From the NCBI GenBank assembly GCA_964480195.1, contig CAYZOJ010000001.1, forward strand, positions 651 through 64,650: 64,000 nucleotides of DNA, read 5' to 3'. The notes beneath the pieces are model-generated. The model was not told where the DNA came from, did no database searches, and was given only the letters and a program-made list of their open reading frames with translations. The position numbers and the translations under genes were made by a program. Of the stretch, positions 12,532-58,384 are shown one piece after another (the first letter of the stretch is position 1; each line of letters opens with the position of its first letter). The stretch comes from an uncultured Christensenellaceae bacterium. GTDB lineage: Bacteria; Bacillota; Clostridia; Christensenellales; DTU072.

Positions 12532-12544
12532 TAACTCAACTCCT

Positions 12545-12799: not shown

Positions 12800-12874
12800 T
12801 GGTACCCCCATGGGGACTCGAACCCCAGATTCCGCCGTGAGAGGGCGACGTCTTAACCGCTTGACCATGAGGGC
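12800..12874 (-). tRNA. tRNA-Glu (anticodon CUC), CCA encoded
   Basis: The reverse complement reads GCCCTCA TG GTC AAGCGGTTAA GAC G TCGCC CTCTCAC GGCGG AATC TGGGG TTCGAGT CCCCA TGGGGGT A CCA. It folds as a 75-nt cloverleaf with a T-loop TTCGAGT. The anticodon arm CGCCCT-CTC-ACGGCGG parallels classical tRNA-Glu. Confidence 0.88.
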
Positions 12875-19300: not shown

Positions 19301-22300
19301 TTCCTTACCGCTTTCTATAACGGTTTTGCTTAAGAAAGCAATCTTGGAAAGCGCGCTTTGTACATACGCGTTCAATGCGCTACTCAATGCGGTATCGAGC
19401 TTTTCTTCATCGGTCATCTCGGCTTCGAAACGGAAGTTGGACTTACCGTAGTTACCGCTGACGATATTGCCTCTTGTCGGGACATAAATCGTTTCTTCGC
19501 CGACCGTCACCGATTTTGTTTCGGTAATACTGATAACATAAGGCGCGACTTCGATTTTTCCGCCGGTGAGCGGGGTAAGGACTTTGTCGACGTCTTCCAA
19601 CCAAACGTAAATTTTACGAGCTTCGACTTTATAGGAGAAGTCCTGAACGACTATCTCGTAATTTTGAACGTTTGCGGTCGCCTTGGAAATGTCTACGGAA
19701 TCGCCGTACATCGTGTGTAGCCCTACTCCGAAATATGAGCCGTTATCCATAAAGGAGATTACGGGGGCGTTTTCGTCGCCTATTCTAAGTCCGAGGCTTT
19801 CCGCCGTATCGTCGTTCTTGAAGCCCTCGTAACTATATATATAGTTGGCGGGAGTTGCCATATATTTGGCGGTTATGACGTTGCCGGCTCCTGCTACCGT
19901 GGATTTCATGGTGAGCGTCAAGGTCGCGCGGACTACTTGAACTTCATACGAATCATCGAATACGATTTCGTAGTTTTCCATATAATAGCCGTTGCTCGAG
20001 AAGCTTACATTATAGCTATCGTCACCCGCATTCGTATATGCGTCCATCGGGTCGATTTCAGACAAGGAAGTATGTGCCCATACAACGTCGGAAAGGCTTA
20101 TGCCGTTTGCCTTATCGGTATCGTCGTCGGCGTATACCAAAATGTTGCGAGTGTCGACAGAGCCGTAATAGAACGAAATGCTTTGGTCGCCGTAAGTCTT
20201 GTTAAGGATTCCGCTGACTCCCGTCATCGCGTAAAGTTTTGCCTTGGCGACGGTGAGTGTGCCGGGAAGTACCTTTATATAATAGTTGTCCGCGGTGTAT
20301 CCGTTGACAGTCCAATCGTAATCGCCTGCGGGGAAGCCGTCAACGTTAAAGATTTCGACTGTGCCGTTTTCGTCGATATAGCAATGGCACCTCAAGGACG
20401 CTCCGCCCTTCAAAATGTCTTTTAAGTCGTTTACGCTATCTCCGCCCGCGAGTCCGCCGAAGCACGCTTGCAACTTTTCTCTTACGGACAATCCGCCGAG
20501 TCCGTTTGCCGTCGCGTACTCCTCAGCCATACGGATGTATTCGAGTTCTTTGGGATCGTTAGTATATTCCGAAATCGAATTGACGTCGAAATAGGTGTAT
20601 TGGCTTACGTATGCCTGTATATCGCTTTGCGAAATCTTGCCGTTATATACGAACTTGCTCTCGTCCGCGATGTCGTTCATCACAATCGTAAGAGTTGCTT
20701 TGCCGACGGTTACTTTTGCGGACGTGCCTATGTCGAGAGAGTAGTTTACGTTGCTTATGCTCATTCCGCTAAGGTCTACGCCGTACGTTCCCGCTTTAAG
20801 AATGTCGATATCCGCAACTATTACGGGCTTACCTTGAATCAACGACTTAATCAGCTTGTCGTCCGTAACGTCTATGCCGTTACTGCTGTCCCATATCGTG
20901 TAAGGAACTTCTACGCCGTCTTTTGCCGTGCCGTAAGGTACCGTTAAGGAATCCACTATTATCTTTAACTTGTGTTCCTTTACTTCCGCCGTGGGCGACG
21001 AGTTGAGCAATTTATAATCGCGGTTATAGTCCGCATAGTACATACTTATTGCGTACTCGCCCTTTTGCGAAGTCGTGTTGTCCCCTTCTGCGCCGAATAC
21101 GAACGCTATATAGGAGTTCTCCTGCGTTACGATGTTCTTGACGACTTTGAACTTGTCGGTTACGTTTTTGAATCGAGTTTCGGCTTTGCCGAGTTCGCCT
21201 TCGTCTATTGCGTCTATCGCGGAGTTTATACTCTCTTGCATCGCGCTTATGGCAAGCAATATGTTTGTCGTGTTTTCTTCCGTAAAGCAATTCAGGTTGG
21301 AGTTGCCGACGTCGTTACCGAACATAACAAGGGTTTGAAGAGCTTCGACAAGCTTGTTGCGTGCGTTGTTTGCTCCGCTTCCGAACGATACCGCTTCGAT
21401 GGCGTTTTTGAGCGTCTTATATTCGGAAGTGAGGTTTTCAAGCTTTGATTTGAACGTGTCGAATTCGTATCCCGCGTCTTTGGAACCGAAAGCAAAATTA
21501 TGGACTATCGGCGCGGTGCCGTAATACGAACTCATCGTAAGTTTGGCGTACTCGATAGAGAAGTCTTCGCCGTCATATGCTTTGGAGAGCGCGGCGGAGC
21601 TTATGGTTACGTTTATCGTCGATCTCTCGATTGTGTAAACGTAATTCTGCAACGTGGTAACGGCAAAGTTCCTGTCGGAGCAGGATATGACAACGTCGTA
21701 CGTGCCTACTGCCGCGTTATCGTTATCGTCGTTGCCGTTACGATCGAACGTGAACGATACGGTGGAGTTATCGAATCCCGTCGTGGCAACCGCGGGTGAG
21801 AACATATTGGAAGTTATGCTCGGTTCCTCGCCGTCGTAGACCTTAGAAAGGTATCTGTCGTTGATACGGATTTCCACACTGCGCGGGACTATCTTGAAGC
21901 GATACGCTTCCTTTAACGCGACGACGTAGTTGGAACTTAAAGAGTTTTCAGCTACTTTGATTTCGTATCCGACTACGGTTACGCCGTCTTCGGCATATCT
22001 GACGTCTTTTGCGGTAACCGCGGTTTCTCCCGAGTATATTCCGAGAGCAAAATACGGGGTACTCTCGCCTGCAATGGTATTTTCGATTTCATAATCCTGC
22101 GAAGTTAAAGTCGCACTCTGGTTATTGAATTCGCGCTCGATTGTGTTTTCGTCCGTTGTCGAATTGCACTTTATTACTATATAAACGGTGCGCGGTTTAA
22201 CGGTAAACGTGATTTCGGGCGAGTTCTCCGAATCGAGTTCGTAGTTCTTGTCCGTAATGTCGGTAACGCGAGTGGTATACGTGCCCGCATTGCGTACGAC

Positions 22301-25300
22301 CGATCTCGAAAGCGAAACGGTATCGTCGTCGAACAACGGACGGTTGTCTTCGTCTGTCGCGTACGTGCCGTCGTCGTTATAAACGTGTTGTAAATCGTCC
22401 GTGCTTATGTGCGCGCTGAATACGTAATCGCTACAGCAATACTCCAATCCGTCCGGAAGTCCGACGTAGTTGTCTATCGTAATGCTTACCTTTCTCTTGG
22501 AGATTACGTACGTATAATCGGCGTCCCCGATAAACGCGACGGAGTAGTTGTTATTGCTTATTTTAACCTTGACGGGATACGTGCCCGCGTCCTTGCTCAT
22601 GCCCTCGAACGAGAACGTTATAAACTTGCTTACCGTACCCGCGTCCGCATAATCGACGTTCTCGCCGTCGACGATTTCGTAAATAGTGTACTCGGAAATC
22701 TCGGGCTTTTTGCCGTCGTATACTTTGGTCAAGGCGCTTTCGTCAACCTTGATATACAAGCTCTTGCTTTCGACCGTGAGCTTGTCGGAAATGAATGTGA
22801 TATAGTAGTTATCGCTACCGAGAGTGCCGATTTGTATGTTGTAGTCGCCTTTGTTTTCGCCGGTTTCTCTACCGAGTGCGCCGGTGAGCGTATCTTTGAC
22901 ACCGTCCTTTACGATAAGTCCGCTCGCCGAGTTACCCTCTATGCCCGAAACGGTATAGGTGAGCACGGGATCCGCGGATCCGTAAATCTTGCTTGCGGGG
23001 TTTGCGGTTACTACTATGGGGCGTTTTGCGACTTCGATATAACCGCCGATATAAACGATATCATAGTTTTCGGCTTTGTCGCCCGTACCGTCGATGGAAA
23101 CGTCGACCGCGTGCATACCCGCCTCTTTGTATCTATCGGGAAGCGACTTATACGTAAGTACGCCGAGGGACGCCAAATCGTCGCCCGGAGCAAACGCGTT
23201 CGTTTCGTCGGTACACTCGGAGTTACCGTAGAAACGTACCTCCGGAACGACGGCTTCTTCGCCGTATACTTTGATTAAAGTGTCAGTCTTAACGTATATC
23301 GTGCGCTTGGTTATCGTTACTTTTGCGCCGGCTTCGTTTGTAAACCTAATATCGTAATTCGGGTTGTAAGTTATGAGGCTTCCTACTTCTATAGCGTACT
23401 CGCCTACGGAATTCTGCTCTCTGTTCTCTCTCGCAAGGTTACCTTTTATGACGTCGGTACCGTACAATCCGCTTTCGGCTTCACCGTCGACTGCAGACAC
23501 CGTAAACGGTATGGCGGAAACAGAGCTTTGTCCGTATGTGTACGTCAAAGACTCGGGAGTTATCACGACCGGACGTTTGGATATGTTGAACGTGCCTCTT
23601 TCAAATACGATTTCGTAGTTCTTGCCTACGATAGAGTTATTGACGTTGAGACTATAAATTCCTTGGGGAGTATCGTTACTGAGATATACTTCGTTACCGC
23701 TTGCGTCGGTGCAGACTATATCGAACATATCGAGCACTATAAGCGCGCCTTCAGAAAGATATTCTTTGCCGTCCGCGTCAACGAGAATTGCGGTGGTCGC
23801 GTACTTCTTATTGTACTCGGTATTAAAGCTTTCGCTATACAAGCCGTCGCCCTCGACGAATACGGAAAGAGGCTCCGCAAGTGCTTCTTTGGACGAATTG
23901 CCGAAAGTCATTTTGAGCTTGGGCATATCCTGTCCGTATACTTTGCTTTGAGATTTTGCAAAACCTACGTAAATCTTCTTCTTGGCAATCTTTAATATAT
24001 TCGTCGCGTCTTCGAATGCGTTGTGTATGCCGTCGCCCGCGTACGATACGACTATGCGATATTCGCCTGCGTCGCTCGGTAACGTCGTATAGTCAGCGCC
24101 CGCTTCACGACGAACGGAAAGCCATATGTTTTGCGGAATATATTCGATTGTAAAGTCGCTTTCTCCAAACGTAACCGTCCTTTCGGTCGCTTCGTACGAG
24201 GAATAACCGTTTATCGTTACGGAAGGCGCTTCCACCGAGCCGTAAACGAAATCGTAATCGTTTTGGTCCGAATACTTTATGGATACGTCCTTACGATCGC
24301 GCATATAGATAACGTAACTCGTGGTGTATTTTTGACCGTAATATGAATACGTTATCTCGATATGTTGAGCTTTGGTTTGACCGTCAAACTCTTCGTTGTT
24401 GAATTTAAGACTGTTGATATTGAACGTGCTCGACGCGTCGTTTATGGCAGCATCGGACATCCTCTTGGTTTCCGTCGTGCCGTTATCGTAATAAAGCATT
24501 ATCGTACCGCCGGAAACGTCGAACTCTTCGTGCTCGATATAGTAACGCTTGGGAAGATCGTTTACGTCGATTTTTACAAGGCTCTTCTCAACAACTCTAA
24601 AATCAACCGTTGCCGTAACGGGCGCCGTTTCGGTTCCGTATGTGTACGAAATCGTTACGGGACGCGCGTCGGACGTGCTGAGGTCGGCTATATCGTATCC
24701 TCCGGGATTGCCGTCGGAAACGTTGATGTACTCGGATTTAAGAGGTATAAGCGTCGAGGTTCCGTCGGTGAACGTCAGACGGAGCATATAATCGGATACC
24801 GCTATCGGCGCACCTTGAATGACTACGAACGCGTCGTCGATATTCGCTTCGAGAGAAACGGAATCGAGTTTCCTATCGCCGACGGTTACCACAACGGTAA
24901 GCGTACGTGCGTTACGCTCCGCCTCGGAAAGGGTCGCCTTTTCTTCCGCGGTACCGTAGAAAAGCTTTACGTATTGGAGTCCCGACGAGTTGGGGGAATA
25001 ATCGGAAACGATAAATCCGTCCGCATATTCCGAAAGAGCGGCGTTACGCATATTGCCGTTGGTTTCCTTGACGTTGATTTGCAACGTTCCCAAACGTACA
25101 AGACGATTGTCTTTGTCCTTAACCGCAAACGAGGTTATGTCAAATCTCGTGCCCGCGGATACTTCCGCCGTCGGGTCGGAACCGCTGTTCCAAGAAACTT
25201 CGCTGACAGACGACGAAACAACCGTTACCTTGACTTCTGCATCCAACGTCTTTTCGTCACTGTAATTATATTTTACCTGTATCGTCTGTTCGCCGATTTC

Positions 25301-27661
25301 GGAATCAAGACCGACAAACTGCAACGTGTTATCCGCAACGGCGTCTTCGATAACTATTTCTTCGTACGTATCGTTGTTGTATATCAGCCACAAGATCATT
25401 CCGTCATAATTGAACGTCAATCCGCTACCTTTGGAAACATAAGTCTTTTGGGTGGGTTCTTGCTTGATTTCGATACTTACGGCTTCTTTTGCGACAACTA
25501 TTACCTTGCTTTGAAGCGTGGCACCGTTATATTCTATTGTTACGATTCTTTCGCCGATAGATGTGTTGCGACTGTTATAATCGAGCATATCTTTGGTAAC
25601 TTCGACATACTCGTCTCCGCCCGCGCGACTGATTAGAAGCGCATAACCGGTAAGATCGATGTCTGTGCCTTCCGTTACGACGCCGAAATCTACGTTCTCG
25701 GAATCATAGCCACCGTCTTCGTTTTCTTTGCACAGCTCTTTTATCTCTTCGAACTCGTTGGTTACTTCTACCGTTATAAAGCACTCTTGCTCCAGTCCAT
25801 TCGTTTCGAAATAAACGCGATACGTGCCGACTTCGGTAAATTGGGTCGAGAGATCTTTGTCTTGCGGTTCGTCGGTATCGTATCCGACGCTAATCGTCCA
25901 ATCCTTTCCGAAATTGTCGGAACCCGCGTCGATATATTGAGCGTTGACTTCGCCTTCGTACGTTACTGCGAGAATGAGGTTTTCAAGGTTCAATTCTTCG
26001 CCTATGGTATATTGGATTTTTACGTCCCCGCCTAATTTGACTTCTTTGATTTTGCGAACTACAGTTACGGTAAAGGCGTTCTCGACGGTGAAACTCAAAT
26101 CGTATTCGTCGACATATGTAAGCTTTGCTGATACCGAACCTACTGCGGTATTGTCGAACTCGACGGTCGCGTCGCCTATCGGAAGATTCTCTTTTACGGC
26201 TCCACTGTTGTACGTAACGTTAATGGTGATGTCCGACGTGTCCGCCGTTCCGTTAAGGTATGCGATTACGCCTTCTTGATTGTTTAGTTCTATGTCGGTA
26301 ATTGCAAGCGCAATGACCTCGAAATCGTATTCTAAGGTTAAGTCGTTATACACAATGACCCAAGTCTGCTCGCCTGCCTCTTCGTAGCGATCTATGACCA
26401 TTCCGCCTTTCCAGTCAACGTACGCGGATATGAGATCGAAAGACTCGCCGACTTCGCCGTTGTTGTAAACGAGTGCTATTTGCCAGTCTTGAAGATTATA
26501 CTCGGTATCTTGATATACTTTGCCTTCTTCGATAACTTTTAAGCCCGTCGCTTCACGCGGGATAACGTCGATTTCAAGTTCGCCGACGGTGGCCAAACAA
26601 ACGTCGCCGTAATAGAAATTGATGTTTACCGTCTGTTTGCCCGCAAGTGTACGGTCATAACCCGAAAACGAAACTTTATCGGAAGGTATAGTGATTTCTT
26701 CACTCGAACCGTTGGTATACGTAACGGCAATCTCGAGTCCGTCTAAATCCAAGTCGAGATATTGATACTTGGGATGCGCTTCGTTTTGCTCTGCGTAATT
26801 CAAGATTTTATAAGAAGCAACGTCGCGATTGGCGATTTTGACGTTAAACTCCGTTTCGAAACCGCCGTACATGACTTTTGCGAATACGCTACTCGCAACT
26901 TGCGTGGAATCGAATTCGTACGTCAATCCCTCAAGCAGAGTGCCGTCCGCCGAGGTCATCGACATCGTGTGTGTATAGCCGTTGTTGTATTTGAGGGTAA
27001 TAATTCCGCCCGTAAGATCGAGCTCGCTGTCGCCGAGGTAGTAGACGGTTTGGTTGGGAACCGTGTGCATGTCGATACCCACAAGTTCGCGGTCTTCGAC
27101 CGTTACGTTGTACGTAGCGGAATAATCGGTGCCGTCGAGGTTGTACGTCACCTTTACTTCTTGCAAACCGAGTGTGTTTCTATCATATCCCGAACACATT
27201 TCGCGCGTAACGGGAACCGTGAGAGCGGTTCCGTCCGAGAATCCGATTACCAAATAACAATCCTCGAGATTGAGTTGTTGCTCGACAATGTAGTTGACGT
27301 TTTCATCGGGAACGATAAGATTGACCGACGCCACTTGCGGACGCATTACCGTAACTTTGAACGTAACGGTTACTCCTTCGTATGAGATCAGTATGTACTG
27401 CTCACCGAGAGTGTCGGGCGAATACGATGATACCATATCAGGCGTAACCGAAACTTTACGCTCGCTCTGGTCGACATACACTACGAGTATGCTCGCGTCG
27501 GTAAGATCGAGCTCTTCGCCTAATACGTACGAAGTTTTGGGCGAAGAATAAATTTCGATATGGTCGATTTTGGGTTCTGCGGTACAAGACACAAACGCGC
27601 ATACCGCGCACACCGTTACAATCAGCGCAATCAACGTCAATAAAAGTTTTCTGTTTTGCAT
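16301..27661 (-). CDS. giant surface lipoprotein (about 3786 aa) with bacterial Ig-like (Big_3-type) repeats and MBG (YGX-type) domains
   Basis: The ATG at 27661 lies after aaagagg, giving MQNRKLLLTLIALIVTVCAVCAFVSC (lipobox-like). In the first ~1000 aa, repeats of the form KTxYxxGExLDLTGxxIxVxYxxG...V occur many times. Mid-protein modules such as KIYGSADPVLTYTVSGIEG...GDYNIQIGTLGSDNYYITF match the MBG YGX type. The last ~900 aa are unassigned. The track start at 27733 is an upstream extension. Confidence 0.9.
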   Translation of the reverse strand: MQNRKLLLTLIALIVTVCAVCAFVSCTAEPKIDHIEIYSSPKTSYVLGEELDLTDASILVVYVDQSERKVSVTPDMVSSYSPDTLGEQYILISYEGVTVTFKVTVMRPQVASVNLIVPDENVNYIVEQQLNLEDCYLVIGFSDGTALTVPVTREMCSGYDRNTLGLQEVKVTYNLDGTDYSATYNVTVEDRELVGIDMHTVPNQTVYYLGDSELDLTGGIITLKYNNGYTHTMSMTSADGTLLEGLTYEFDSTQVASSVFAKVMYGGFETEFNVKIANRDVASYKILNYAEQNEAHPKYQYLDLDLDGLEIAVTYTNGSSEEITIPSDKVSFSGYDRTLAGKQTVNINFYYGDVCLATVGELEIDVIPREATGLKVIEEGKVYQDTEYNLQDWQIALVYNNGEVGESFDLISAYVDWKGGMVIDRYEEAGEQTWVIVYNDLTLEYDFEVIALAITDIELNNQEGVIAYLNGTADTSDITINVTYNSGAVKENLPIGDATVEFDNTAVGSVSAKLTYVDEYDLSFTVENAFTVTVVRKIKEVKLGGDVKIQYTIGEELNLENLILAVTYEGEVNAQYIDAGSDNFGKDWTISVGYDTDEPQDKDLSTQFTEVGTYRVYFETNGLEQECFITVEVTNEFEEIKELCKENEDGGYDSENVDFGVVTEGTDIDLTGYALLISRAGGDEYVEVTKDMLDYNSRNTSIGERIVTIEYNGATLQSKVIVVAKEAVSIEIKQEPTQKTYVSKGSGLTFNYDGMILWLIYNNDTYEEIVIEDAVADNTLQFVGLDSEIGEQTIQVKYNYSDEKTLDAEVKVTVVSSSVSEVSWNSGSDPTAEVSAGTRFDITSFAVKDKDNRLVRLGTLQINVKETNGNMRNAALSEYADGFIVSDYSPNSSGLQYVKLFYGTAEEKATLSEAERNARTLTVVVTVGDRKLDSVSLEANIDDAFVVIQGAPIAVSDYMLRLTFTDGTSTLIPLKSEYINVSDGNPGGYDIADLSTSDARPVTISYTYGTETAPVTATVDFRVVEKSLVKIDVNDLPKRYYIEHEEFDVSGGTIMLYYDNGTTETKRMSDAAINDASSTFNINSLKFNNEEFDGQTKAQHIEITYSYYGQKYTTSYVIYMRDRKDVSIKYSDQNDYDFVYGSVEAPSVTINGYSSYEATERTVTFGESDFTIEYIPQNIWLSVRREAGADYTTLPSDAGEYRIVVSYAGDGIHNAFEDATNILKIAKKKIYVGFAKSQSKVYGQDMPKLKMTFGNSSKEALAEPLSVFVEGDGLYSESFNTEYNKKYATTAILVDADGKEYLSEGALIVLDMFDIVCTDASGNEVYLSNDTPQGIYSLNVNNSIVGKNYEIVFERGTFNISKRPVVITPESLTYTYGQSSVSAIPFTVSAVDGEAESGLYGTDVIKGNLARENREQNSVGEYAIEVGSLITYNPNYDIRFTNEAGAKVTITKRTIYVKTDTLIKVYGEEAVVPEVRFYGNSECTDETNAFAPGDDLASLGVLTYKSLPDRYKEAGMHAVDVSIDGTGDKAENYDIVYIGGYIEVAKRPIVVTANPASKIYGSADPVLTYTVSGIEGNSASGLIVKDGVKDTLTGALGRETGENKGDYNIQIGTLGSDNYYITFISDKLTVESKSLYIKVDESALTKVYDGKKPEISEYTIYEIVDGENVDYADAGTVSKFITFSFEGMSKDAGTYPVKVKISNNNYSVAFIGDADYTYVISKRKVSITIDNYVGLPDGLEYCCSDYVFSAHISTDDLQHVYNDDGTYATDEDNRPLFDDDTVSLSRSVVRNAGTYTTRVTDITDKNYELDSENSPEITFTVKPRTVYIVIKCNSTTDENTIEREFNNQSATLTSQDYEIENTIAGESTPYFALGIYSGETAVTAKDVRYAEDGVTVVGYEIKVAENSLSSNYVVALKEAYRFKIVPRSVEIRINDRYLSKVYDGEEPSITSNMFSPAVATTGFDNSTVSFTFDRNGNDDNDNAAVGTYDVVISCSDRNFAVTTLQNYVYTIERSTINVTISSAALSKAYDGEDFSIEYAKLTMSSYYGTAPIVHNFAFGSKDAGYEFDTFKSKLENLTSEYKTLKNAIEAVSFGSGANNARNKLVEALQTLVMFGNDVGNSNLNCFTEENTTNILLAISAMQESINSAIDAIDEGELGKAETRFKNVTDKFKVVKNIVTQENSYIAFVFGAEGDNTTSQKGEYAISMYYADYNRDYKLLNSSPTAEVKEHKLKIIVDSLTVPYGTAKDGVEVPYTIWDSSNGIDVTDDKLIKSLIQGKPVIVADIDILKAGTYGVDLSGMSISNVNYSLDIGTSAKVTVGKATLTIVMNDIADESKFVYNGKISQSDIQAYVSQYTYFDVNSISEYTNDPKELEYIRMAEEYATANGLGGLSVREKLQACFGGLAGGDSVNDLKDILKGGASLRCHCYIDENGTVEIFNVDGFPAGDYDWTVNGYTADNYYIKVLPGTLTVAKAKLYAMTGVSGILNKTYGDQSISFYYGSVDTRNILVYADDDTDKANGISLSDVVWAHTSLSEIDPMDAYTNAGDDSYNVSFSSNGYYMENYEIVFDDSYEVQVVRATLTLTMKSTVAGAGNVITAKYMATPANYIYSYEGFKNDDTAESLGLRIGDENAPVISFMDNGSYFGVGLHTMYGDSVDISKATANVQNYEIVVQDFSYKVEARKIYVWLEDVDKVLTPLTGGKIEVAPYVISITETKSVTVGEETIYVPTRGNIVSGNYGKSNFRFEAEMTDEEKLDTALSSALNAYVQSALSKIAFLSKTVIESGKEGKNIEYYKGSELYAHSITKVGYTQDDVNGDYVTMKLGGMSFATKEYNVVLDYKEFKVDIQREVRSVIAEWTEKLLAEDLSNMEEVKKKLNVAVGMYMMVNGSLESGFIVDGSNGSIVIEGLDSCAVGKTNYITVKYDYQCKLFDLMSNLNYEVSYATTIGSQTQEVRVDDARQNTYDTTKVDGLSSYIPTRFYANKTSTVSDPEISGLTYGKLNNATGDSTFVSTKNAYDFDGIRMRVRLAETEGENKFTVVFAGDVSSNGYALAMTFNRSDVSNAVVTLYSVSGGKLTAMSTANYAMDCSKLFDGYSHDLRIKFNKELITVIASIDGSSGAIKDISAIDGITSARAYLTGADSDARKFYISSTMKYALGSLTLTEQGLYEHTGTFIDIAQNANGVISVDTSEAFFKTNASLLNNFFGLPSKLGSAFTTEYYVDGEKAEEPANVILGRGSHMIELALYYNGALLDTDYTIVTVTRSVTSLAFDVSGGTGEIVTAGSKLRMYTPLVNSSFDGDSDLVTSDAATARSYMLYATDTESSTGNGMYAPSYYSHSFTLDRIASYAQLTGNAIYEAGTNVLYYNLFAEGGYSTNNINGLKTATSDYALSIATNPNVKGARLRFERHQNSQEVYDKTETYDYYYDVYLDVRCIEKDATEVTTVTTQLYSNVKGSALGVGFEVRAYYDKLGAMGNGSAKIRIRQIGTTTWQDVDLASIGDIGDAQPFVMLTGNATRVTNNKLLFVENDHAYNDYLIDDEYTMYNGSAVTLKAGSTLKLADGVGTARYSAYNNIEFEFGVESANGTVGMALAESAVYDEYNPNLFYGAYLDYDLEANKLVFKFRYGSVYSLAQEFKLSESNSAVGTHKITVDLNMDEMNLKNYVGGDSELGTNLVRNGVTLTDSKGAKLYYHKIDVTIDGESAVFYLPHYADMNGWYMANGSVYGSGDANKYSDIDINDAPATFISIYNYNSVTAPEATSLTVYKYVTAIADSGAYTQRALKNKTPLI

Positions 27662-27704
27662 ATTACCTCTTTGCGCGCCCTCACGCGCGCGACTATACGT
27701 GTAT

Positions 27705-27733
27705 ATTTTAACATACGCGCGCGTACTTGGCAA
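27705..27733 (-). promoter_or_regulatory. putative promoter of the giant lipoprotein gene
   Basis: On the minus strand, TTGCCA (27733-27728) is followed by a 17-nt spacer and TAAAAT (27710-27705). The resulting 5' UTR contains the hairpin gcgcgc-gtgagg-gcgcgc just before the SD. Confidence 0.4.
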
Positions 27734-27807
27734 TACGTTATGCGATTTTTTATCCCCTATTTATATAATAAAAGCATATGTTGAGCAAATTATTTACTTA
27801 TTATTTA

Positions 27808-28268
27808 CCGCAAAGCGGTGCGCAAGCAAAGCTTGCGCTATACAATCCTTGCGGATTGATGATATACAACGCCTACGCGTTGATGATATACACACTACGT
27901 GTGATGATATACACGCTATCGCGTGATTGACCACAACGGCTGTGCCGTTGATTAAGGTATTTAGGAGCGGAATGACAATCCCTCCGCGCTACGCGCTATA
28001 CAATCCTTACAGATTGATGATATACAACGCCTACGCGTTGATGATATACACACTACGTGTGATGATATACACACTGCGTGTGATGATATACACGCTATCG
28101 CGTGATTGACCACAACGGCACAGCCGTAGACTGAGGGATTGTCATATATATTCTTAAATACCACAACTTTCACGAAGTGAAAATTTCACCTGCCGTAGGC
28201 AGATTTCACCCGCGAAGCGGATTTCACCTTGCGCAAGCAAGATTTCACCGGCGAAAGTCTCTTTCGCC
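27808..28268. repeat. mini-hairpin array A (type-1 units x2 blocks, a core inverted repeat, then type-2 units)
   Basis: About 19 hairpins. The type-1 linker tgatgatataca occurs 7 times, with stems caacgc/gcgttg, cacac/gtgtg, cacgc/gcgtg and caacgg/ccgttg. A block of about 158 bp starting gcgctatacaatcc occurs twice in tandem (27835 and 27993). Type-2 units (28168-28268) use the linker (a/g)atttcacc with stems tttcac-gaa-gtgaaa, cctgcc-gta-ggcag, ccgc-gaa-gcgg, cttgc-gcaa-gcaag and ggcgaaag-tct-ctttcgcc. Confidence 0.9.
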
Positions 28269-28272
28269 CTGT

Positions 28273-28466
28273 GGCGCATTGTATAGCTCTCGGCGGGATA
28301 TTTAGTCCTATAATGCGAAAAAATCGGAGCGGAAGCTGTACAAAGGTACGCGGGCGGAGATTTGGGCGCCCGTAAGGGCTTAACAAGCCCTTTATTTCGC
28401 ATTAGAGGGCTGAAGAGCCCGTCGAGAGCGTGTAGACAAATAAAACCCGAAAAATTAAAAATAGGC
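28273..28466. ncRNA. unclassified structured module, copy 1 (candidate RNA or ssDNA element; strand undetermined)
   Basis: Colinear with 51048-51250 in the same orientation. The closing helix is gctctcggcggg (28286-28297) with cccgtcgagagc (28418-28429). The inner helix aatgcgaaa (28312-28320) with tttcgcatt (28395-28403) shows three compensatory pair changes in copy 2. Nested hairpins are gtac-aaag-gtac, cgggcg-N10-cgcccg and aagggctt-aac-aagccctt. Confidence 0.5.
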
Positions 28467-28483
28467 ATCCGCTATATCTGTTT

Positions 28484-28520
28484 ATACAAAGAAAAAAGCT
28501 GTCCGAGCGTCGAACAGCTT
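28484..28520 (-). terminator. rho-independent terminator of the IS200/RAYT-like gene
   Basis: aagctgt (28496-28502) pairs with acagctt (28514-28520), with an inner cga/tcg extension. On the minus strand it is followed by TTTTTTCTTTGT. Confidence 0.75.
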
Positions 28521-28558
28521 ATCTTCTTACTTCAAGTTAAATGCCTATTTTTCGGGTT

Positions 28559-29869
28559 TTATTTGTCGTAACACATTGAGGTGAGCGTCATTATTCGGTT
28601 GGGATCTTCAAAGGTGTTGATTATACCGAACTGCTTGATTACGAACTCGACGCTCGTATTTCTCTTTTCCGCAACGTATCTGATAAGCTCGACAAGGAAA
28701 TTATCGTTGAAATACACGACTTGTCCGCCGGCAACCGCACAATACGCAAATCCCATCATCGAGAAAATCTGGTCGATGCTGTATCCGAGTCTGTCGGAAA
28801 GCAAAAGTATGGTGTCGCGCATAAGCTTGTTGCCTTCGGGTACGATTTGCAACGCTTCTACGTTCTGGTCGTACGTTTGGCGCATATTGACGGTAAGTTC
28901 CGCCATAACCTTTACGAGAGTAACATACTTGTCGGTGCGGGTTATCGCAAGCTTCGAGCATATAGCATCGTAACTGAATCCACCTCTCTCGTTGATTTCC
29001 GCAATAATCCTCGGCATAAGGTTGTTGGGAATGGCTCTCTTGGTGTAGCAACCATAGTCGATGAGCACGTTTTCGATGGTCGCACGGAACTTGTCGATTT
29101 CGGGAAGATTAAGGAAGTCTTCCGGTATCGTACGCAAGCCGTCGTCATACGCTTCCGCCAAAAGCTTTTCGGCTTTAGCAACGCCCATCGTTTCATACAA
29201 ACTGTCACGGCACGCGAGCGAACCAGCGTCGGAACACGCCTTGCCGTAAGAGCTGAACGGATACGCCCAACTGTGCGTTAAAAAGTTCGCGTACGGCTGA
29301 CTTTCGATAATGGCTACGCTTTCGGCTAAATCTTTATGTTCCTTAACTTTCTTTACGCGAAGTCTGCTCTTGAATACAAAACCCGCCGTCTGGAAGTTCT
29401 CGTTAAAGAACTTGGCGTAAAGCGTGTTTGCCGTATCGAAGAATCTACGGTAGCTTACGGGCGTTTGGTCATATGACGCGATAAGGAAATATGCCCTATT
29501 GTTGATGACGGAGTATGCAACTATATCCACGGGGAACGATCCGACTGCCGTCATTATACATTTGAGATAATACATCTTTGCGCCCGGGGTGGGGAATACT
29601 ATACATTTGGGTCTGCCGTCTACCGCTACACGATAGAAATCCGGTTTGACGGTATTGTACGCGTTGACGCGACGATCCGCCCTACGTTGGTCAGACGGAA
29701 GTCTGCCGATGGGGGCTGCGTTGATTATTGCGCGGGTCGGCTTACCGTGTACAAATCCTGCTTGAATAGTGTTCGCCTCTACGGGTCCCACGTTTGTAGG
29801 ATTGGTTACGCGGATAGTCTCCTGCGGAGTGTTACACGAGCATCCGTTGTGATTGTGTTCGTTTGCCAT
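28559..29869 (-). CDS. IS200/RAYT-like (COG1943, Y1 HUH transposase fold) homolog with degenerate catalytic motifs and an HTH-like C-terminal region
   Basis: The core aligns by eye with Firmicutes IS200-like/REP-associated tyrosine transposases. Examples are DFYRVAVDG vs GIYHVMLRG, VAYSVINNRAYFLIA vs YAYCLMxNHxHLLI, GFVFKSRLRVKKV vs GHLFQDRFKSExV, AIIESQPYANF vs RYIHQNPVKAG, and YPFSSYG vs YKWSSY. HUH is replaced by R-A-Y and the helix Tyr is absent. 436 aa. Confidence 0.65.
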   Translation of the reverse strand: MANEHNHNGCSCNTPQETIRVTNPTNVGPVEANTIQAGFVHGKPTRAIINAAPIGRLPSDQRRADRRVNAYNTVKPDFYRVAVDGRPKCIVFPTPGAKMYYLKCIMTAVGSFPVDIVAYSVINNRAYFLIASYDQTPVSYRRFFDTANTLYAKFFNENFQTAGFVFKSRLRVKKVKEHKDLAESVAIIESQPYANFLTHSWAYPFSSYGKACSDAGSLACRDSLYETMGVAKAEKLLAEAYDDGLRTIPEDFLNLPEIDKFRATIENVLIDYGCYTKRAIPNNLMPRIIAEINERGGFSYDAICSKLAITRTDKYVTLVKVMAELTVNMRQTYDQNVEALQIVPEGNKLMRDTILLLSDRLGYSIDQIFSMMGFAYCAVAGGQVVYFNDNFLVELIRYVAEKRNTSVEFVIKQFGIINTFEDPNRIMTLTSMCYDK

Positions 29870-34495: not shown

Positions 34496-37400
34496 TTATA
34501 CTATTTCAAAATCCAGCGACGACTTGCCCTCAAACGAGTAGTTGCCGGAAATCTTTACCGTGTATTTGCCCTTTTCGCGCGGGAGCGAATCGAGGAGTAT
34601 GCCGTTTGCGTCGTAATACAATATGTCTTTGGCGTCGATACGAGATATTGCGCCGATGGCGTCGGTATATTGAGCGCCGAACGACTGTATTTCGCTACCC
34701 GTAAACGGCACGGTCGAGCTTTGCTTATTGTAGTTGTTGGGCGTGATGAAATCGACGTTTATCACGGCACCGCTCTTGTTCTTTTCGACGCGCTTGGGAT
34801 AAATCGTGAGAGTGGGCTTGCCGTAACCTATATTATACAGAGCGTTTTGGTTCTGTCCGTCTTTGAGCTTTACGAATATTTCGTACGTTCCGTATCCGCC
34901 CTGCGCGGTGTATTTGACGTCCTCGCCCTCTTCGCGATATATTTCAAGCTCGACTACGTCGTTACCGACGAGTTCGTCCTCTTCGATGGTGTATACGATG
35001 TCGGCGTCCGCCTCACCGTACGTCTTTGTCATACTCGAAACGTTAACCATTATATACTTTCTGGTTATGGTGAGTTTGAGAGTGTCTTCCTCGACCCAGC
35101 TTTCGTTATAATATTCGTTCGCGAGTACGTGTATGCGGAGAGGATATACTCCGGGATAAACGGGAGCTTCCGTACTCCATTCGCCGTCGACGAGGAATTC
35201 GACTTCGGTATCGGGAACGGTAAATCCCGCTATCGACTGAGTTATCGTAATGGTCGGTTTGGTGACGGAGCCGTAAGCCATGGTCGAGTTACCGCACTTG
35301 GGCTCGGCGGTAAGTTTACGGTACGACGTAACGTCGAACGCGGTCGTTCTTTCGCCGTAAATGAGAGTTACGGTCTGAGTGGTCTTGGTACCGCCCTGAA
35401 CGTTTGCAAACGGATCTTGAGAATATCCGTTTATAGCTATAAGACCGCTCGTCATAGGCAATACGTCGGACTCGCCGTTATCGTATATGCGTTCGATATA
35501 TCCGCCCTCGGTATTGAGCGCCTGACCTTCCGCATACGTCAGAACGGTCGGGACGGTCTTTACTCTGATTTCCTTGAGCGTACGCTCGGATACGTAAAGC
35601 CAGAAAGTCGCGTTGCAACCGCCGTACGATATCGTAGCTTGTTGGAAATAACCGCCTTTATCGCTCTTTACGTAGTGCTTGTCGTAATCGAGATATCCAG
35701 CTTTCAACGTGCGCGTAACGCGCTCCCCGCTCGTAAATTCGACATCGAAATACAAATTGCCTATCGTATCCTCATCGAGATACGTGGCGTTGAGGTCGTC
35801 TTTATATGTTACTTTGTACGCGTTGCGCGTAACGCCATCGACGGTAACAGCCTCCATTCCGGGTTGCTTATCGTCAAACGAAATGCTTTGGACGCTTCCC
35901 GACGCGACTTCGACTTGGAATGTCGTAACGTATCTTCTTACGGTTCCGTCGTTATCGGTTATCGAATAAGTCGCGGTAATCGTCTGGATTCCCAAAACGT
36001 CGGGCGTAAATCCGGTAAACGTCCAGAGGCTCGAATCCAACGTGGATATGACGGACGACGTGCCGTCGTTAAACGTACGCGTAATCTTTATTCCGCTCAA
36101 ATCGAGTTCGTCGTCTATGCCCGAAACGTAAACGGTTTTATCGGGAGCTCCGGTAACTTCTATTGCGGAGACCTGTCTTCCCTCAATCTTGGTTTTTATC
36201 GTAAACACCGTGCCGTAATAACGGAACATTACGTCTTTTCTGCCGGACTTGCCGTCGTCTTCCGTAAGAAGTTCGACGTCATTGCCGTCGATAGTGAAGA
36301 TTACGGAATTCGATCCCGATTTCGTAGCAAGCATTCTTATCTTGGAATTGATTAGATCCGAAATCGACGCGAACGTGTAAGTCGAATCGAAATTGTATCC
36401 GCTTTCCGCAAACGTTATCTTGGTTACGTAGTCCTCTTCGGGTACGGCGTGAACGGTAAAGGTGCTCTCCTTCCCGGTGATATTAACATTGACGGTGTAA
36501 TCTCCGACATAGGAAAGAATATCCGTCGGGGTACCGTCGTAATATATCGAAATGTACTTTTCGGGTATCGGCGACAGCGTTTCTACGGTATTGTCGTTAT
36601 ACTCGACGTATACGGAAGAACCGTCAAGATCGAGCTCCGAACCGATTTTATAGTAGTTGCGATAAGGCTCTTTCGCGCTGACGGATACCGCTACGCGAGC
36701 GATTACCTTGACTTTGAATCCCGCCGTTACACCGCCGACGGAGAAATTGATGGTCTGATATCCGTCTTTGCACGCGCTGAGCGAAAGACGGAATTGCGAA
36801 CCGTCGGACGCCAAATCGTTTTCGTTAAGCGAAGCCCACGTCGAAACGTCGTTCTCGTCGAACTCGTACGTGCCGTTATCGTAAAGGGTGTTGTAACGAA
36901 GATATGCCGTCGTAAACATCTGCCCTTCGACAAAAACTTTATTGGCAACCTGTTCGGCGGGGTCTTTGCGCGAATCGGCAACCAAAAGACGGTATGCCTT
37001 TTTGCCCTCTACCGCGATGTGCATGGGGGTAGCCCAATCGCTGTTGCCGTAACAAATATAGACAACGTGTTCTTTGAGCTCGGTGAAACTATGGTCTTTG
37101 GTTATGCGCTTATCGGCGGTCGTACCGTCCAAATAGTAATAAAGGTTGTCGCCGTCGAGAGAAATATTCTCTTTTTTGCCGTCTTCGTAAACGACGGTCG
37201 CCCTACCCGTACTCCAGTCGATTTTGTCGCCCTCTCGGATTTTGGAAATTTCCGTTATCCACGTACTTCCGTCAAGCACTATGCCGACGGTTTTGGGGAA
37301 GACGTCAATAGTTAAAGTCTTGGCTGTAGGAACCGCAACCGCACAATTAAATCTTGCGGACTTACCCATATACGTTACGGTTACTTTGGAATATGCGTTT

Positions 37401-38161: not shown

Positions 38162-38191
38162 ACGCACTCCGCAGTCGATAGTATTGCTTAT

Positions 38192-50640: not shown

Positions 50641-50675
50641 TATTAAAAGTGAATCTCAAAAAAATATGCGAGAAG

Positions 50676-50930
50676 GCTTAGTGCTAAGATGGGCTGACGG
50701 AATGATGTTTGCCTTACGGCAATGAGGCTTGCGCAATGATGTTGCCTTCGGCAATACTGCTTGCGCAATGAAATCTTGCTTTGCAAGATGAAATCCGCAT
50801 TCGCGGGTGAAATCTGCCTACGGCAGGTGAAATATTCGCTTCGCGAATGTTGTGGTATTTAGGAGCAGAATGACAATCCCTCAGTCTACGCCGTAAACGG
50901 CGTATCCAGCTCCCTTTACACAAAGGAGCC
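50676..50930. repeat. mini-hairpin array B (type-2 units and core motif, inverted relative to array A)
   Basis: Hairpins include ttgcc-ttac-ggcaa, ttgcc-ttc-ggcaa, tcttgc-ttt-gcaaga, ccgc-attc-gcgg, ctgcc-tac-ggcag, attcgc-ttc-gcgaat and cgccg-taaa-cggcg. The linker (g/a)tgaaat is the reverse complement of atttca(c/t) in array A. The core motif ttgtggtatttaggagcagaatgacaatccctcagtctacg lies at 50849-50889. Confidence 0.85.
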
Positions 50931-51047
50931 TTAAAACTTGCGTAAATTTACTGGTTTTCTTCTAAATTTACCTATTTTTCGATGTTAATACTATCGTTCT
51001 ATAGCGAAATACAGCCGTCAAGATGAACAATACTGTCGCCAATTATA

Positions 51048-51250
51048 GGCGCATTGTGTAGCTCTCGGTGGGATATTTAGTCATATAACGCAAGAAAATC
51101 CGAGCGGAAGCAGTACAAGCGTACGCGGGCGAGGATTTGGGCGCCCGTAAGGGCTTAACAAGCCCTTTATCTTGCGTTAGAGGGCTGAAGAGCACAGCGA
51201 GAGCGTATATAGTGGGGAGCAAGTAAAACCCGAAAAATTAAAAATAGGCT
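51048..51250. ncRNA. unclassified structured module, copy 2
   Basis: Same order and orientation as 28273-28466. The closing helix is gctctcggtggg (51061-51072) with cacagcgagagc (51193-51204). The inner helix is aacgcaaga (51087-51095) with tcttgcgtt (51170-51178). The three nested hairpins are conserved. Confidence 0.5.
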
Positions 51251-51269
51251 ATCCGCTAACGTTCTCCGT

Positions 51270-51305
51270 ATAAGAAAAATAGACTAACGTGTTGCCGTCA
51301 GCCTA
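51270..51305 (-). terminator. rho-independent terminator of the 771-aa gene
   Basis: On the minus strand, TAGGCTGAC-ggcaacac-GTTAGTCTA forms a 9-bp stem with two G.U pairs valid only in the minus sense. It is followed by TTTTTCTTAT. Confidence 0.6.
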
Positions 51306-51341
51306 TTACTTTTCTAATCATACCCGCCTATTTTTCGGGTT

Positions 51342-53657
51342 TTACTTGCTCTTCACGATAAAAATAAGACCTGCGTGCGGAGCAAGTTTGATTGCCTTGC
51401 CGAGATTAAACGGACGTCCCTTTTGCATATTCCTTATCTCGGGACAACGGACTTTTTTGCCGACTGTCGTGAACCCGAGTTTGTTTTCGACGCCTATTTC
51501 GAACGTCTTTTTCTCTTCGGAATCGTTATACAAAACGGCTATCATATCTTTGCCGTTGATATACGACGTGCAATAGACGGACGCGTTATCCGATCTCACG
51601 GGATTGGTCTTGTCCCAATAGCCCTTTAACTCGGCATTTCCTATGTCGAAATCGCGGAATACGCGGTTAAGATCCTCTATCGCCTCGGTCGTTTCTTCAT
51701 CCTCACCGACACACGGGATTATTCCCGTCAGCAATCCCCTGCATATGCCTATCGGCGAGAGCGAATCGACGGTGAAGCCGTACGGCACACCGCTTACGCC
51801 TATCAATGTGGAATCGAGATCACGATCTCCGTATCCTTTTACTGCAACCTTAGAAACGAACGGCAATACGTCCGCATAAGTCGAAAGAGTATCTATGCGA
51901 CAGTCGGAATCCCCGTATCTGTTCGACAACACAAGTTCGGTAAATCCGCCCCCTCTTTTGCGGGTCATACATTTTTGTATTCTCTCCGCAACCGTAGGGG
52001 TAAGCGACGGATTGTGCATCGAAACGAAGTCGATATCCGCAACGCCTATAAGCCTCTTTAACGACTCGACGTAATAGTTATCGAACCTTGACGCCGTGGC
52101 TATGTGCCCGAACTCGCCAAAGTCCGTACGGAAACGGTCGAACATTATTTCGCCGTCCAACGACATTAGCGCGTAATACTCCGCGACATCGGATCCGAGC
52201 GTGTTGATACCGTATTCCAAACCGCACGCAATATCACGCTTATGGGCTACCAAAGTGAGCTTTTTGAGAGCCTTAACATCGTCTTGGACACTCTTTACGT
52301 GAGCGTTGCCCGCAGAAGGACGACCTACCGACAACGACGTCGTGCAGTAGCGCGAAGCGCGTGCCGACTCATCTTGGAAACCGCCTTGACCGAGTGTATA
52401 AATCCTGTTCCCTGCCGAAGCTCTGAGATCCAACGGACGGAACGGAGTAAGGTGTATATCGAAGCAGAACGACACCTTGTCGCCCTTTGCAAAAATCATC
52501 TTGCCTGTATACGCCGAGAACAACGCGCCTTCGTCTATTCTGCGAACGGTTACTCCGCCTTTGCCGTAATTTGCCCAAGTGGTCTTAGGCGGACGGGCGC
52601 CCGTTTCCAACGGGGCTCCGTATACGGGGAAGTCGCAGTTGTCGCGGTTTTCTCTAAGTCTTATACGGGCACCGCAGTTTACGTTGCCGATATAAAGATA
52701 GTCCCCGCCGACTTCCGTCCATTTGTAATCGAGGTCTTTGAGTCTACCCGGAGCCATACCCATTCCGACACCGTAATCGGCAGACGCAAAATACGCGTTC
52801 AGGCGTATGTCTTCGACAATGGCGTCTTCAAACGCGTCTATCGTAACGGTATAATGCAAAACGCCCTCGTAATGCGCTTCTGCGTTTACGGTTATATGCA
52901 ACTTATCGGATCTGCCGTCGGAAACTATTAACGCGGAATCGGGCTTATCGGTAATCTTTATACGGTTATACTTAAACTTTTGCCCTTCCGCGATAAACTC
53001 CATGGGACGGAAAAACAGCGACGCCGTTACCTCGTCCGTAAGCGCGTTGGATTCGGAATAATAGCTCTCGACGTCATTTATAAAGCCGTCGCCCGTAAAA
53101 CTCACGCGTTTTCCCGTAAACGTTACGGAGTTCTTGTCCGCCGAAACCGCGTAGAAACCCGGGACGAGTTTCTTATCCATATATTCGGTGGAATTGAGCC
53201 ATTTTAGCCTTGCAAGCGTGCTTCCGTCGTCCGTACCCTCGTTAAAAACGAGTTTGTCGGTAAGCTTGAATACGAGTTCCACTTTTTCGCCGTCAACGTA
53301 AACGTCCGTGCGATATTCGTCGATATCCGCTCTCGAGAGGTCTACGCCTATCAACAGAACGGTTATCGCGCCCGCGTTTACTCTGACGGGACGGGTAAAT
53401 TTTTTACCGTCCGCGCCGACGCCTTCGGAATTAAAGCAAGTTACGGCTTTATCGAAATTCTTGTTTGCACCTCTGAGCGGTCCCGTTTTGACCTCGACAA
53501 GCGCGTCAAAGCCCGTCAAAACAGCCAGCTGAACGACGTAATACTCGTGCCTTGACGGCGTATATTCGAACGTACGTCCGTCGTTTAACCCGTCAAGCAC
53601 GGAAAGATCGTAACGGTCGCTAATTACCGTTTTTCGGTCAATCGAATAAATTTTCAT
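51342..53657 (-). CDS. uncharacterised 771-aa protein, possibly a glycoside-hydrolase-like enzyme (operonic with GH2)
   Basis: Long ORF with SD ggagaa and no signal peptide. It sits 12 nt downstream of the GH2 gene. I cannot assign a family from sequence alone; the GH123/DUF4091-like idea is only a guess. Confidence 0.6.
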   Translation of the reverse strand: MKIYSIDRKTVISDRYDLSVLDGLNDGRTFEYTPSRHEYYVVQLAVLTGFDALVEVKTGPLRGANKNFDKAVTCFNSEGVGADGKKFTRPVRVNAGAITVLLIGVDLSRADIDEYRTDVYVDGEKVELVFKLTDKLVFNEGTDDGSTLARLKWLNSTEYMDKKLVPGFYAVSADKNSVTFTGKRVSFTGDGFINDVESYYSESNALTDEVTASLFFRPMEFIAEGQKFKYNRIKITDKPDSALIVSDGRSDKLHITVNAEAHYEGVLHYTVTIDAFEDAIVEDIRLNAYFASADYGVGMGMAPGRLKDLDYKWTEVGGDYLYIGNVNCGARIRLRENRDNCDFPVYGAPLETGARPPKTTWANYGKGGVTVRRIDEGALFSAYTGKMIFAKGDKVSFCFDIHLTPFRPLDLRASAGNRIYTLGQGGFQDESARASRYCTTSLSVGRPSAGNAHVKSVQDDVKALKKLTLVAHKRDIACGLEYGINTLGSDVAEYYALMSLDGEIMFDRFRTDFGEFGHIATASRFDNYYVESLKRLIGVADIDFVSMHNPSLTPTVAERIQKCMTRKRGGGFTELVLSNRYGDSDCRIDTLSTYADVLPFVSKVAVKGYGDRDLDSTLIGVSGVPYGFTVDSLSPIGICRGLLTGIIPCVGEDEETTEAIEDLNRVFRDFDIGNAELKGYWDKTNPVRSDNASVYCTSYINGKDMIAVLYNDSEEKKTFEIGVENKLGFTTVGKKVRCPEIRNMQKGRPFNLGKAIKLAPHAGLIFIVKSK

Positions 53658-58321: not shown

Positions 58322-58384
58322 GTACGCTCCTTAATCCCTATACCTGTCTATTATAACACTAATGTCGCCCGTTGTAAATGCTAA

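Follow-up and report, generated by a model that had tools for sequence, protein, structure and literature searches.

A repeated two-domain intergenic cassette with a five-way-junction fold: an accessory repeat or candidate small RNA in an uncultured Christensenellaceae lineage

Two intergenic regions of an uncultured Christensenellaceae bacterium carry copies of a strongly structured sequence, which raises the question of whether this is the gene of a structured RNA or a repeat that acts at the level of DNA. The window that we analyzed, the whole 64-kb stretch of DNA (64,000 nt), is chromosomal and encodes, among other proteins, DnaE, UvrC, glycoside hydrolases and transporters. A first-pass annotation had described two colinear copies in the same orientation at 28273-28466 and 51048-51250, and this was borne out both by blastn (28273-28474 against 51048-51258, 85.8% identity, same strand) and by an ungapped core alignment of 28280-28436 with 51055-51211 (137 of 157 positions identical, 87%, with 20 substitutions). 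The copies proved to be real, but the ends given for them were wrong: past the module and a variable spacer the conserved block resumes and runs, with a second domain, to 28567 and 51360, ∼130 nt farther. Thus 28273-28567 and 51048-51360 are same-strand, colinear copies of one non-coding cassette of ∼300 nt (∼295-315 nt), with the multi-stem module in its 5' half (Table 1). The full unit (303 and 318 nt) forms two clean folding domains (z-scores of -11.1 and -8.2), and the window holds two full copies of it. Similarity between the copies begins sharply at GGCGCATTGT (28273 in copy 1); the sequence directly 5' of the two is unrelated, and at copy 1 consists of an inverted Gut-1 array. The module is 87% identical between copies, against ∼50% for the adjoining spacer, which points to constraint on the module.

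Table 1. Coordinates of the two cassette copies and of their parts in the 64-kb window.
Feature	Positions	Strand	Basis or remark
Copy 1, conserved 5' flank	28273..28285	+	blastn; pairs 4-154 and 5-153
Copy 1, multi-stem module	28286..28429	+	MFE -82.8 kcal/mol on + vs. -61.8 on -
Copy 1, helices P1-P3	P1 28286-28297/28418-28429; P2 28301-28309/28406-28414; P3 28311-28320/28395-28404	+	
Copy 1, hairpins P4-P7	P4 28328-28337 (GGAA loop); P5 28338-28349; P6 28350-28373; P7 28374-28392	+	
Copy 1, inverted repeat, left arm	28435..28466	+	GACAAATAAAACCCGAAAAAT, 5-nt bulge TAAAA, ATAGGC
Copy 1, fast-evolving spacer with intrinsic terminator of 436-aa gene	28467..28542	-	hairpin 28520-28496 and T-run
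Copy 1, inverted repeat, right arm	28543..28567	+	overlaps stop codon (28559-28561) of minus-strand 436-aa gene
Copy 2, 5' flank and multi-stem module	51048..51204	+	module 51061-51204; MFE -76.0 kcal/mol on + vs. -51.9 on -
Copy 2, inverted repeat, left arm	51208..51249	+	inverted-repeat search: 31 nt, 90%, 91 nt apart
Copy 2, variable spacer with GH123 gene terminator	51250..51325	-	hairpin 51307-51278
Copy 2, inverted repeat, right arm	51326..51360	+	overlaps stop codon (51342-51344) of 771-aa GH123 gene
Diverged inverted copy of ∼65-nt stop-proximal and terminator unit	50645..50711	+	nhmmer E 4e-14; far edge of locus-2 insert

Both copies have one and the same structure as minimum free energy (MFE) fold and as centroid, and it is the multi-stem junction that had been drawn for them. 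Helices P1-P3 make up an imperfect 34-bp rod, which closes a five-way junction with the small GGAA-loop hairpin P4 and the hairpins P5-P7; the MFE z-scores of the module on the plus strand are -8.3 (copy 1) and -7.7 (copy 2). In the 157-nt core model, 4 of 53 base pairs changed on both sides and still pair, all of them transition-transition, so that each is reachable via a G.U intermediate. Three lie in the inner helix (U-A>C-G, G-C>A-U, A-U>G-C) and one in the outer helix (C-G>U-A), as the first-pass annotation had claimed and as the core alignment shows, although with two full copies this covariation amounts to a single pairwise comparison. When the same 20 substitutions were placed at random, at least four compensated pairs arose in 2.8e-4 of 200,000 trials, and when the 3' partners were slid by 1-3 columns, pairing fell from 92% to 31-49% with no compensated pair. 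In copy 2, new G.G and G.A mismatches adjoin the changed pair in outer helix P1, and the helix there is consequently weaker. Substitutions cluster in the arms of the rod; the P5-P7 stems (19 bp) did not change between copies, which confirms the three invariant stems noted at the outset (gtac/gtac, gcgggcg/cgcccgt and aagggctt/aagccctt), and the loops of the first two differ. Identical wobbles and A.G mismatches are kept in both copies, so the arms have not simply been homogenized.

The fold also distinguishes the strands. The proposal that the plus strand is the one that folds had drawn on a G.U pair in copy 1, which is present at 28293/28422, and it held for the module as a whole: on the plus strand there are four G.U pairs in copy 1 and three in copy 2 (up to 5-7 if a possible P0 extension is included) and no A.C, the remaining mismatches are purine-purine throughout, and every wobble turns into an A.C mismatch on the minus strand. 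Folded as RNA, the plus strand is better by 21-24 kcal/mol (Table 1); folded as single-stranded DNA it is better by ∼12 kcal/mol (-47.7 vs. -36.0). The asymmetry is consistent, though it rests on a handful of wobbles. The outer helix may extend into P0, 28273-28285 pairing with 28431-28436, where in candidate pairs 4-154 and 5-153 only one partner changed and pairing is kept; the same bases can equally be read as imperfect GTRTA direct repeats flanking a 144-nt palindrome. The model further allows a possible 5-bp pseudoknot, invariant in both copies, between AAAUC (28321-28325) and GAUUU (28359-28363).

The second domain is a long inverted repeat. In copy 1 its arms (28435-28455 and 28547-28567) are 21 nt long, 100% complementary and 91 nt apart, and in copy 2 (51208-51238 and 51330-51360) they are 31 nt long, 90% complementary and again 91 nt apart; one substitution and one indel that distinguish the copies appear in both arms, mirrored. 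The arms bracket the spacer, ∼50% identical between copies, in which the upstream gene has its intrinsic terminator, on the minus strand, and at both loci the right arm covers the stop codon of that gene. The module was correctly placed past minus-strand stop codons and beyond their terminators: it ends 130-138 nt from the stops of the genes at 28559-29869 and 51342-53657. Four spacer alleles were found (the two in the window and those of strains L027 and L020), with different yet paired hairpins. All four have one orientation and differ in sequence, not by inversion, which makes an invertible terminator switch less likely; an integron attC site was rejected because the arms, as read from the sequence, do not match RYYYAAC/GTTRRRY. 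A profile of the 65-nt stop-proximal unit (an A-rich box plus a hairpin; 51284-51349, minus strand) detected, by nhmmer, an inverted and diverged copy at 50645-50711, so that the locus-2 insert (50645-51349, ∼700 nt) is bounded by inverted 65-nt units. Strains L020 and L153 also have the ATCTCAAAAAAATATGCGAGA variant of this unit, there behind the 436-aa gene.

Both cassettes lie inside gaps of 760-900 nt that separate a gene from the giant surface-protein gene downstream of it, and these genes, like all others around the cassettes, are on the minus strand. At locus 1 the upstream gene encodes a 436-aa protein (28559-29869, minus) and the downstream one a protein of 3810 aa with Big_3 domains (16301-27733, minus); at locus 2 the upstream gene encodes a 771-aa GH123 protein (51342-53657, minus) and the downstream one a protein of 1860 aa with MBG_2 domains (44997-50579, minus). 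Each giant gene has a good promoter ∼70 nt or less from its start codon, conserved in relatives, which places the cassette upstream of the promoters and outside the leaders of the giant genes. The two giant proteins carry Big_3, MBG_2 and GLUG domains, and a third Big_3 gene in the window (34496-38167) has a short upstream gap with no cassette. Elsewhere, at 56786-63093 on the minus strand, four tandem and possibly paralogous genes of 482-511 aa, with no Pfam match, stand upstream of a beta-galactosidase/GH123 cluster. No transposase, recombinase or reverse transcriptase was found in the 64-kb window, nor any TnpB, IscB, IS110 or Cas gene.

The 436-aa neighbor of copy 1 (28559-29869, minus) has no Pfam, NCBIfam or PDB sequence match. 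The top PDB fold match of its AlphaFold model (pLDDT 74) is the REP-associated tyrosine transposase 4er8 (E 6e-5), and TnpA structures of IS608, IS200 and ISDra2 follow. Its N-terminal domain, read from the sequence, contains no HxH motif in residues 70-200, and there is no tyrosine at what we take to be the position of the RAYT catalytic tyrosine; the protein looks like an inactivated, domesticated RAYT/TnpA derivative. Relatives down to 47% identity conserve the position of the gene, with an MFS transporter gene on one side and a giant Big_3/MBG gene on the other. Because it keeps this place in relatives that have no cassette, it is not linked to the cassette, and as a mobilizing enzyme we rejected it for that stable synteny and for its want of an HxH motif.

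Both loci also contain hairpin arrays of a second kind. The Gut-1 pattern consists of three short hairpins with GUGAAAU linkers. As an RNA motif (RF01706) it has been an orphan, described in 2010 from gut metagenome fragments alone (Weinberg et al., 2010, PMC2864571). A true match (67.2 bits) lies at 28178-28250 on the minus strand, 23 nt from copy 1, and sub-threshold Gut-1-like arrays lie on the plus strand at 27835-27915, 28015-28094 and 50734-50850; in the arrays the linkers GUGAAAU and UGAUAUA are conserved and the hairpin stems vary from unit to unit. Relative to the module, the Gut-1 unit is inverted at locus 1 and in the same orientation at locus 2, which makes the two separate modules. 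A third array site (12540-12760) lies just past the tRNA-Glu gene (12800-12874, minus) and its terminator, and its orientation flips midway. In the published Gut-1 alignment with its flanks, arrays likewise follow a terminator or tRNA, and in at least one entry a reverse array comes after a forward one. Such a layout, arrays in two orientations behind a terminator or tRNA, looks like that of REP/BIME-type clusters. On one viral contig (L058, 250-430), arrays in both orientations stand just before a terminator and a tRNA fragment as fetched. Core strings of the module were absent from the flanks of the published alignment.

Two further repeats were seen beside these arrays. The region 27835-28140 contains a tandem duplication of 158-179 nt built from units with a 21-nt period (TGATGATATACAC plus a hairpin), and since 21 nt equals seven codons, open frames with repeated MIYTLRV-like peptides result (ORFs 27778-27930 and 27927-28109); these ORFs are probably repeat artefacts. 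A block GGTATTTAGGAGC(G/A)GAATGACAATCCCTC, with a good ribosome-binding site and an ATG, occurs three times, at 27956-27994 (plus), 50854-50891 (plus) and 28125-28165 (minus), and the ORFs that follow begin with MTIP and then diverge, at lengths of 8, 16 and 45 aa.

Searches for a known identity of the module were negative. In line with the first-pass annotation, no Rfam 15 family covered it at the gathering score or at E ≤ 10, and 28273-28432 and 51048-51206 gave, at E ≤ 10, nothing beyond a chance-level match to ncS011 (E 3.9). The module does not match Gut-1 (RF01706, threshold at least 50 bits), and the inverted-repeat arms drew only matches of miRNA-precursor type, far below threshold. 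In a six-frame check, stops interrupted five of the six frames and no conserved small ORF was found on either strand. The sole frame open in both copies differs by 14 non-synonymous against 4 synonymous codons and its ATG is lost in copy 2, so the sequence is non-coding. A 104-aa open frame across the module had no candidate in the protein database, where this ORF is uncalled even in the source genome, so that this negative carries no weight. A scan for the sigma-70 consensus on the plus strand found no promoter of at least 9/12 upstream of either module; the single promoter-like match on that strand (28433-28462) lies downstream of the copy-1 module.

Nor did wider searches extend the family much. 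In the covariance-model search that had been proposed to find further homologues, model R1 was run on 313 kb of related contigs, where it recovered the two copies and the L027 fragment and nothing else, and another 71 kb gave no match. In all sequence searched, two full copies and one 30-nt fragment were found. The exact pattern GCGCCCGTAAGGGCNNNNNNGCCCTT, which diverged homologues would escape, gave only chance matches in GC-rich coding DNA in collections of genome and metagenome contigs. Viral contigs scanned with module or arm patterns yielded chance matches only, blastn against phages and plasmids nothing real, and blastn of a further 1.08 Mb of viral loci nothing.

Orthologous loci were retrieved through the flanking proteins, with proteins at least 90% identical taken as one species-level cluster. 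At locus 1, the gene order aldolase, MFS transporter, 436-aa gene and giant protein is shared by relatives with protein identities of 79%, 67% and 47%; their gaps measure 184-360 nt and contain no cassette. In strain L025/L026 of the same species the gap, 305 nt long and with a terminator of its own, is likewise without a cassette. In L027, locus 1 has the right and then the left arm of the inverted repeat around a third, distinct terminator spacer, and the left arm is followed by the module's first 30 nt, with an outer helix of copy-2 type; the contig stops inside the module, 154 nt past the stop codon. Other short-read (Logan) contigs at this locus stop 24-65 nt past the stop codon. At locus 2, the contigs of relatives at 94% and 81% stop 24-27 nt past the stop codon, inside the arm, and in a 65% relative the gap measures 140 nt and lacks the cassette. 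Contigs of the same or close species (L020-L024, L028-L031, L153-L154) all end 24-65 nt past the stops of both upstream genes, inside the cassette. Such contig ends suggest that the cassette is repeated or heterogeneous in those samples. Alleles are mosaic among strains, and the cassette is accessory and allelic, being present, absent or variant from strain to strain, which implies that it spread by duplication or recombination.

Several families of repeats resemble the cassette in part. Like REPIN and REP/BIME elements (RAYT, Y1 HUH), it is intergenic, lies just past stop codons and terminators, has conserved inverted arms around a variable spacer and strand-specific hairpins, and varies among strains, and an IS200/RAYT-fold protein is encoded beside copy 1. 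Unlike them, its arms are not themselves palindromes and its first domain is a five-way junction and not a simple hairpin; copy 2 has no RAYT-fold neighbor, and the one at copy 1 lacks HxH in residues 70-200, with its gene in place in cassette-less relatives. REPINs, like MITEs and PATEs, have many dispersed copies per genome; the 64-kb window holds two cassettes, and the contig ends in the same species are compatible with more copies or with mixed strains. MITE-type repeats (Correia/CREE, ERIC, BOX, RUP) are, like the cassette, imperfect intergenic palindromes of 100-300 nt that fold strongly if transcribed and are modular, mosaic and strain-variable; the cassette differs from them in its compensated palindrome arms around an invariant center, in a conserved unit that exceeds the palindrome, and in having no clear target duplication or parent insertion sequence that we could find. 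The ends of the block, GGCGCATTGT... and ...GGGTTTTATTTGTC, are not complementary, as terminal inverted repeats would be, and the 38-nt arms start 13 nt inside. A target-site duplication is likewise missing at the block ends, the only candidate being the imperfect GTRTA repeats around the inner 144-nt palindrome that may equally form helix P0, and the 5' flanks differ between copies (CCTGT vs. TTATA) at the place of an IS200/IS605 (PATE) cleavage motif. With Gut-1 the cassette shares the character of an orphan structured element of uncultured gut Clostridia that stands after terminators, but the module itself is no match to it and their relative orientation differs between the loci.

The QUAD/Sib repeats of E. 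coli are highly structured units of ∼150-300 nt that are multi-copy, strain-variable and convergent and share a bidirectional terminator. By analogy, the cassette may be compared with such repeated small-RNA loci in size, structure, copy number, strain variability, convergent arrangement and bidirectional terminator. It differs from QUAD/Sib and from type I toxin-antitoxin loci in lacking, on either strand, a conserved small ORF for a hydrophobic peptide; nor did we detect a pair of promoters.

The explanation that we put first, tentatively and at somewhat less than an even chance, is a lineage-restricted structured RNA read from the plus strand and carried on a repeated cassette. Its main competitor is a selfish repeat at the DNA level, non-autonomous and MITE-, REPIN- or IS200/IS605-PATE-like, with no role as RNA, which we consider on balance unlikely and yet a serious possibility. 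The complementarity of the arms would then come from one protein that recognizes both, from intrastrand template switching or from gene conversion, and the element would have landed in neutral sequence behind a terminator and ahead of the next promoter. Its spread as presence, absence, and mosaic alleles (L025 empty; L027 with a third spacer allele and a copy-2-type outer helix at locus 1), the breaking of short-read contigs in the cassette, the inverted 65-nt units that bound the locus-2 insert, the perfectly conserved, REPIN-like arms around a variable spacer, the co-occurrence with dispersed palindromic arrays at three sites, the GTRTA repeats on either side of the 144-nt palindrome and the failure to find a promoter would all fit such an element, and single-stranded DNA folding likewise prefers one strand. 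It is harder to reconcile with arms that vary more than the center, and with compensation, since the termini bound by a transposase should be the most conserved part. The conserved wobbles and A.G mismatches argue against homogenization, the conserved block exceeds the palindrome on both sides and does not end in inverted repeats or in a clean target-site duplication, and the window contains no transposase, recombinase or reverse transcriptase. In addition, the favored strand is probably the leading-strand template, the wrong strand for an IS200/IS605-type single-stranded element, a call that was inferred from gene orientation, holds if genes are co-oriented with replication, and is accompanied by a weak and uneven GC skew.

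The remaining explanations appear much less probable. If the structure belonged to the minus strand, it would be part of the 3' region of the upstream gene, a fail-safe or insulating stack of terminators against read-through into the giant gene; this is very unlikely, even though the element always lies directly behind a minus-strand gene with an arm over the stop codon, presents on that strand an inner terminator followed by an outer hairpin and a U-rich tract, and precedes giant genes that both have promoters of their own near the start codon. On the minus strand, however, the wobbles become A.C and the fold loses 21-24 kcal/mol, two terminators precede the module, which would therefore rarely be transcribed, and relatives manage with an ordinary terminator in a gap of 140-350 nt. 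The chance is slim, too, that a recent neutral duplication merely inherited its complementarity, with the “compensation” due to coincidence or to a single conversion event. The comparison does involve two sequences only, and the three P3 changes lie within 6 bp per arm, where one template-switch event could copy them, but the fourth compensated pair is in a different helix, the probability under random placement is ∼3e-4, and the hairpin stems are 100% identical and the core 87% against ∼50% for the spacer. Membership of a known class (riboswitch, ribozyme, tmRNA, 6S, SRP, group II intron fragment, retron ncRNA, omega or bridge RNA, type I toxin-antitoxin) is largely refuted. The general look, with a long-range closing helix, a multi-way junction and a bidirectional terminator, is that of type I toxin mRNAs and transposon guide RNAs, but against these classes stand the lack of an Rfam 15 match at E ≤ 10, of a conserved small ORF in any frame, of a reverse transcriptase, TnpB, IscB, IS110 or Cas gene in the window, and of a downstream plus-strand gene to regulate. 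A type I toxin-antitoxin locus or small protein was thus rejected for want of a conserved ORF with a ribosome-binding site, an ORF-less group II intron after the terminator for want of an intron-domain match in Rfam, and a retron, omega RNA or bridge RNA for want of a partner gene in the 64-kb window.

What favors the structured plus-strand RNA is the combination of arms that changed with compensation around a core that did not change, wobbles and A.G mismatches that were kept, and a module conserved far above its spacer, which together argue for selection on a single-stranded fold. Variable, compensated arms around a fixed center are the opposite of an element with terminal inverted repeats, whose termini are conserved. 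The first-pass reading of a structured RNA stands in its fold, its compensation, its plus-strand preference and its absence from Rfam; as a functional RNA the element is a candidate. Against it count arms 100% conserved around a variable spacer, which look more like a DNA repeat recognized by a protein or by recombination than like a terminator, the lack of a plus-strand promoter, the unrelated upstream sequence, the limitation to two full copies, the location of every surrounding gene on the opposite strand, and the behavior of a mobile or recombining repeat among palindromes. In view of the missing promoter, the two copies plus a fragment, the absence in relatives and the palindromic mosaic, we keep the alternative of a repeat that acts as single-stranded DNA or at the DNA level. 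On sequence evidence, we would describe the element as a structured intergenic repeat of orphan status or a candidate small RNA, which matches no known RNA family and, within the data searched, is confined to one lineage; given its absence from sister strains, it counts as an accessory repeat or candidate small RNA and not as a core regulator.

For transcription, the transcript end and any function, we infer the following from the preferred RNA reading. Domain 1, the P1-P3 rod and the five-way junction with its three invariant hairpins, would have been selected to pair as a single plus strand. The product would most likely be a small RNA of ∼300 nt, convergent with the upstream gene and heading for its 3' end. 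Its transcript would end at domain 2, where the inverted repeat (A-tract, stem and U-tract) could act as a bidirectional terminator that encloses the terminator hairpin of the neighbor, and, through its 3' domain, the RNA would by necessity run antisense to the neighboring mRNA over its final codons and terminator. The invariant core and the GNRA-type loop suggest an RNA that binds protein or adopts a tertiary fold and less a simple antisense RNA.

A more far-reaching version, which we consider rather improbable, would treat the whole inserts of 600-750 nt as mobile “RNA gene cassettes” of uncultured gut Clostridia. On one strand, these would line up a Gut-1-type hairpin array, a short ORF led by a ribosome-binding site, the five-way-junction RNA and the bidirectional terminator, inserted past the stop codon of one gene and ahead of the promoter that drives a giant adhesin gene, and their presence or absence would modulate surface-protein expression or supply a new protein-binding RNA.

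The cassette was found in one species-level lineage only, and its reach is narrow on either main reading. If it is expressed, it would represent a new structured RNA family in a lineage of uncultured gut Clostridia, and the Gut-1-type arrays would gain an adjoining, fully assembled genomic setting. If it is a DNA-level repeat, it would be an unusually ornate family of intergenic repeats in Clostridia, one that fragments short-read assemblies and remodels the sequence ahead of giant surface-protein genes.
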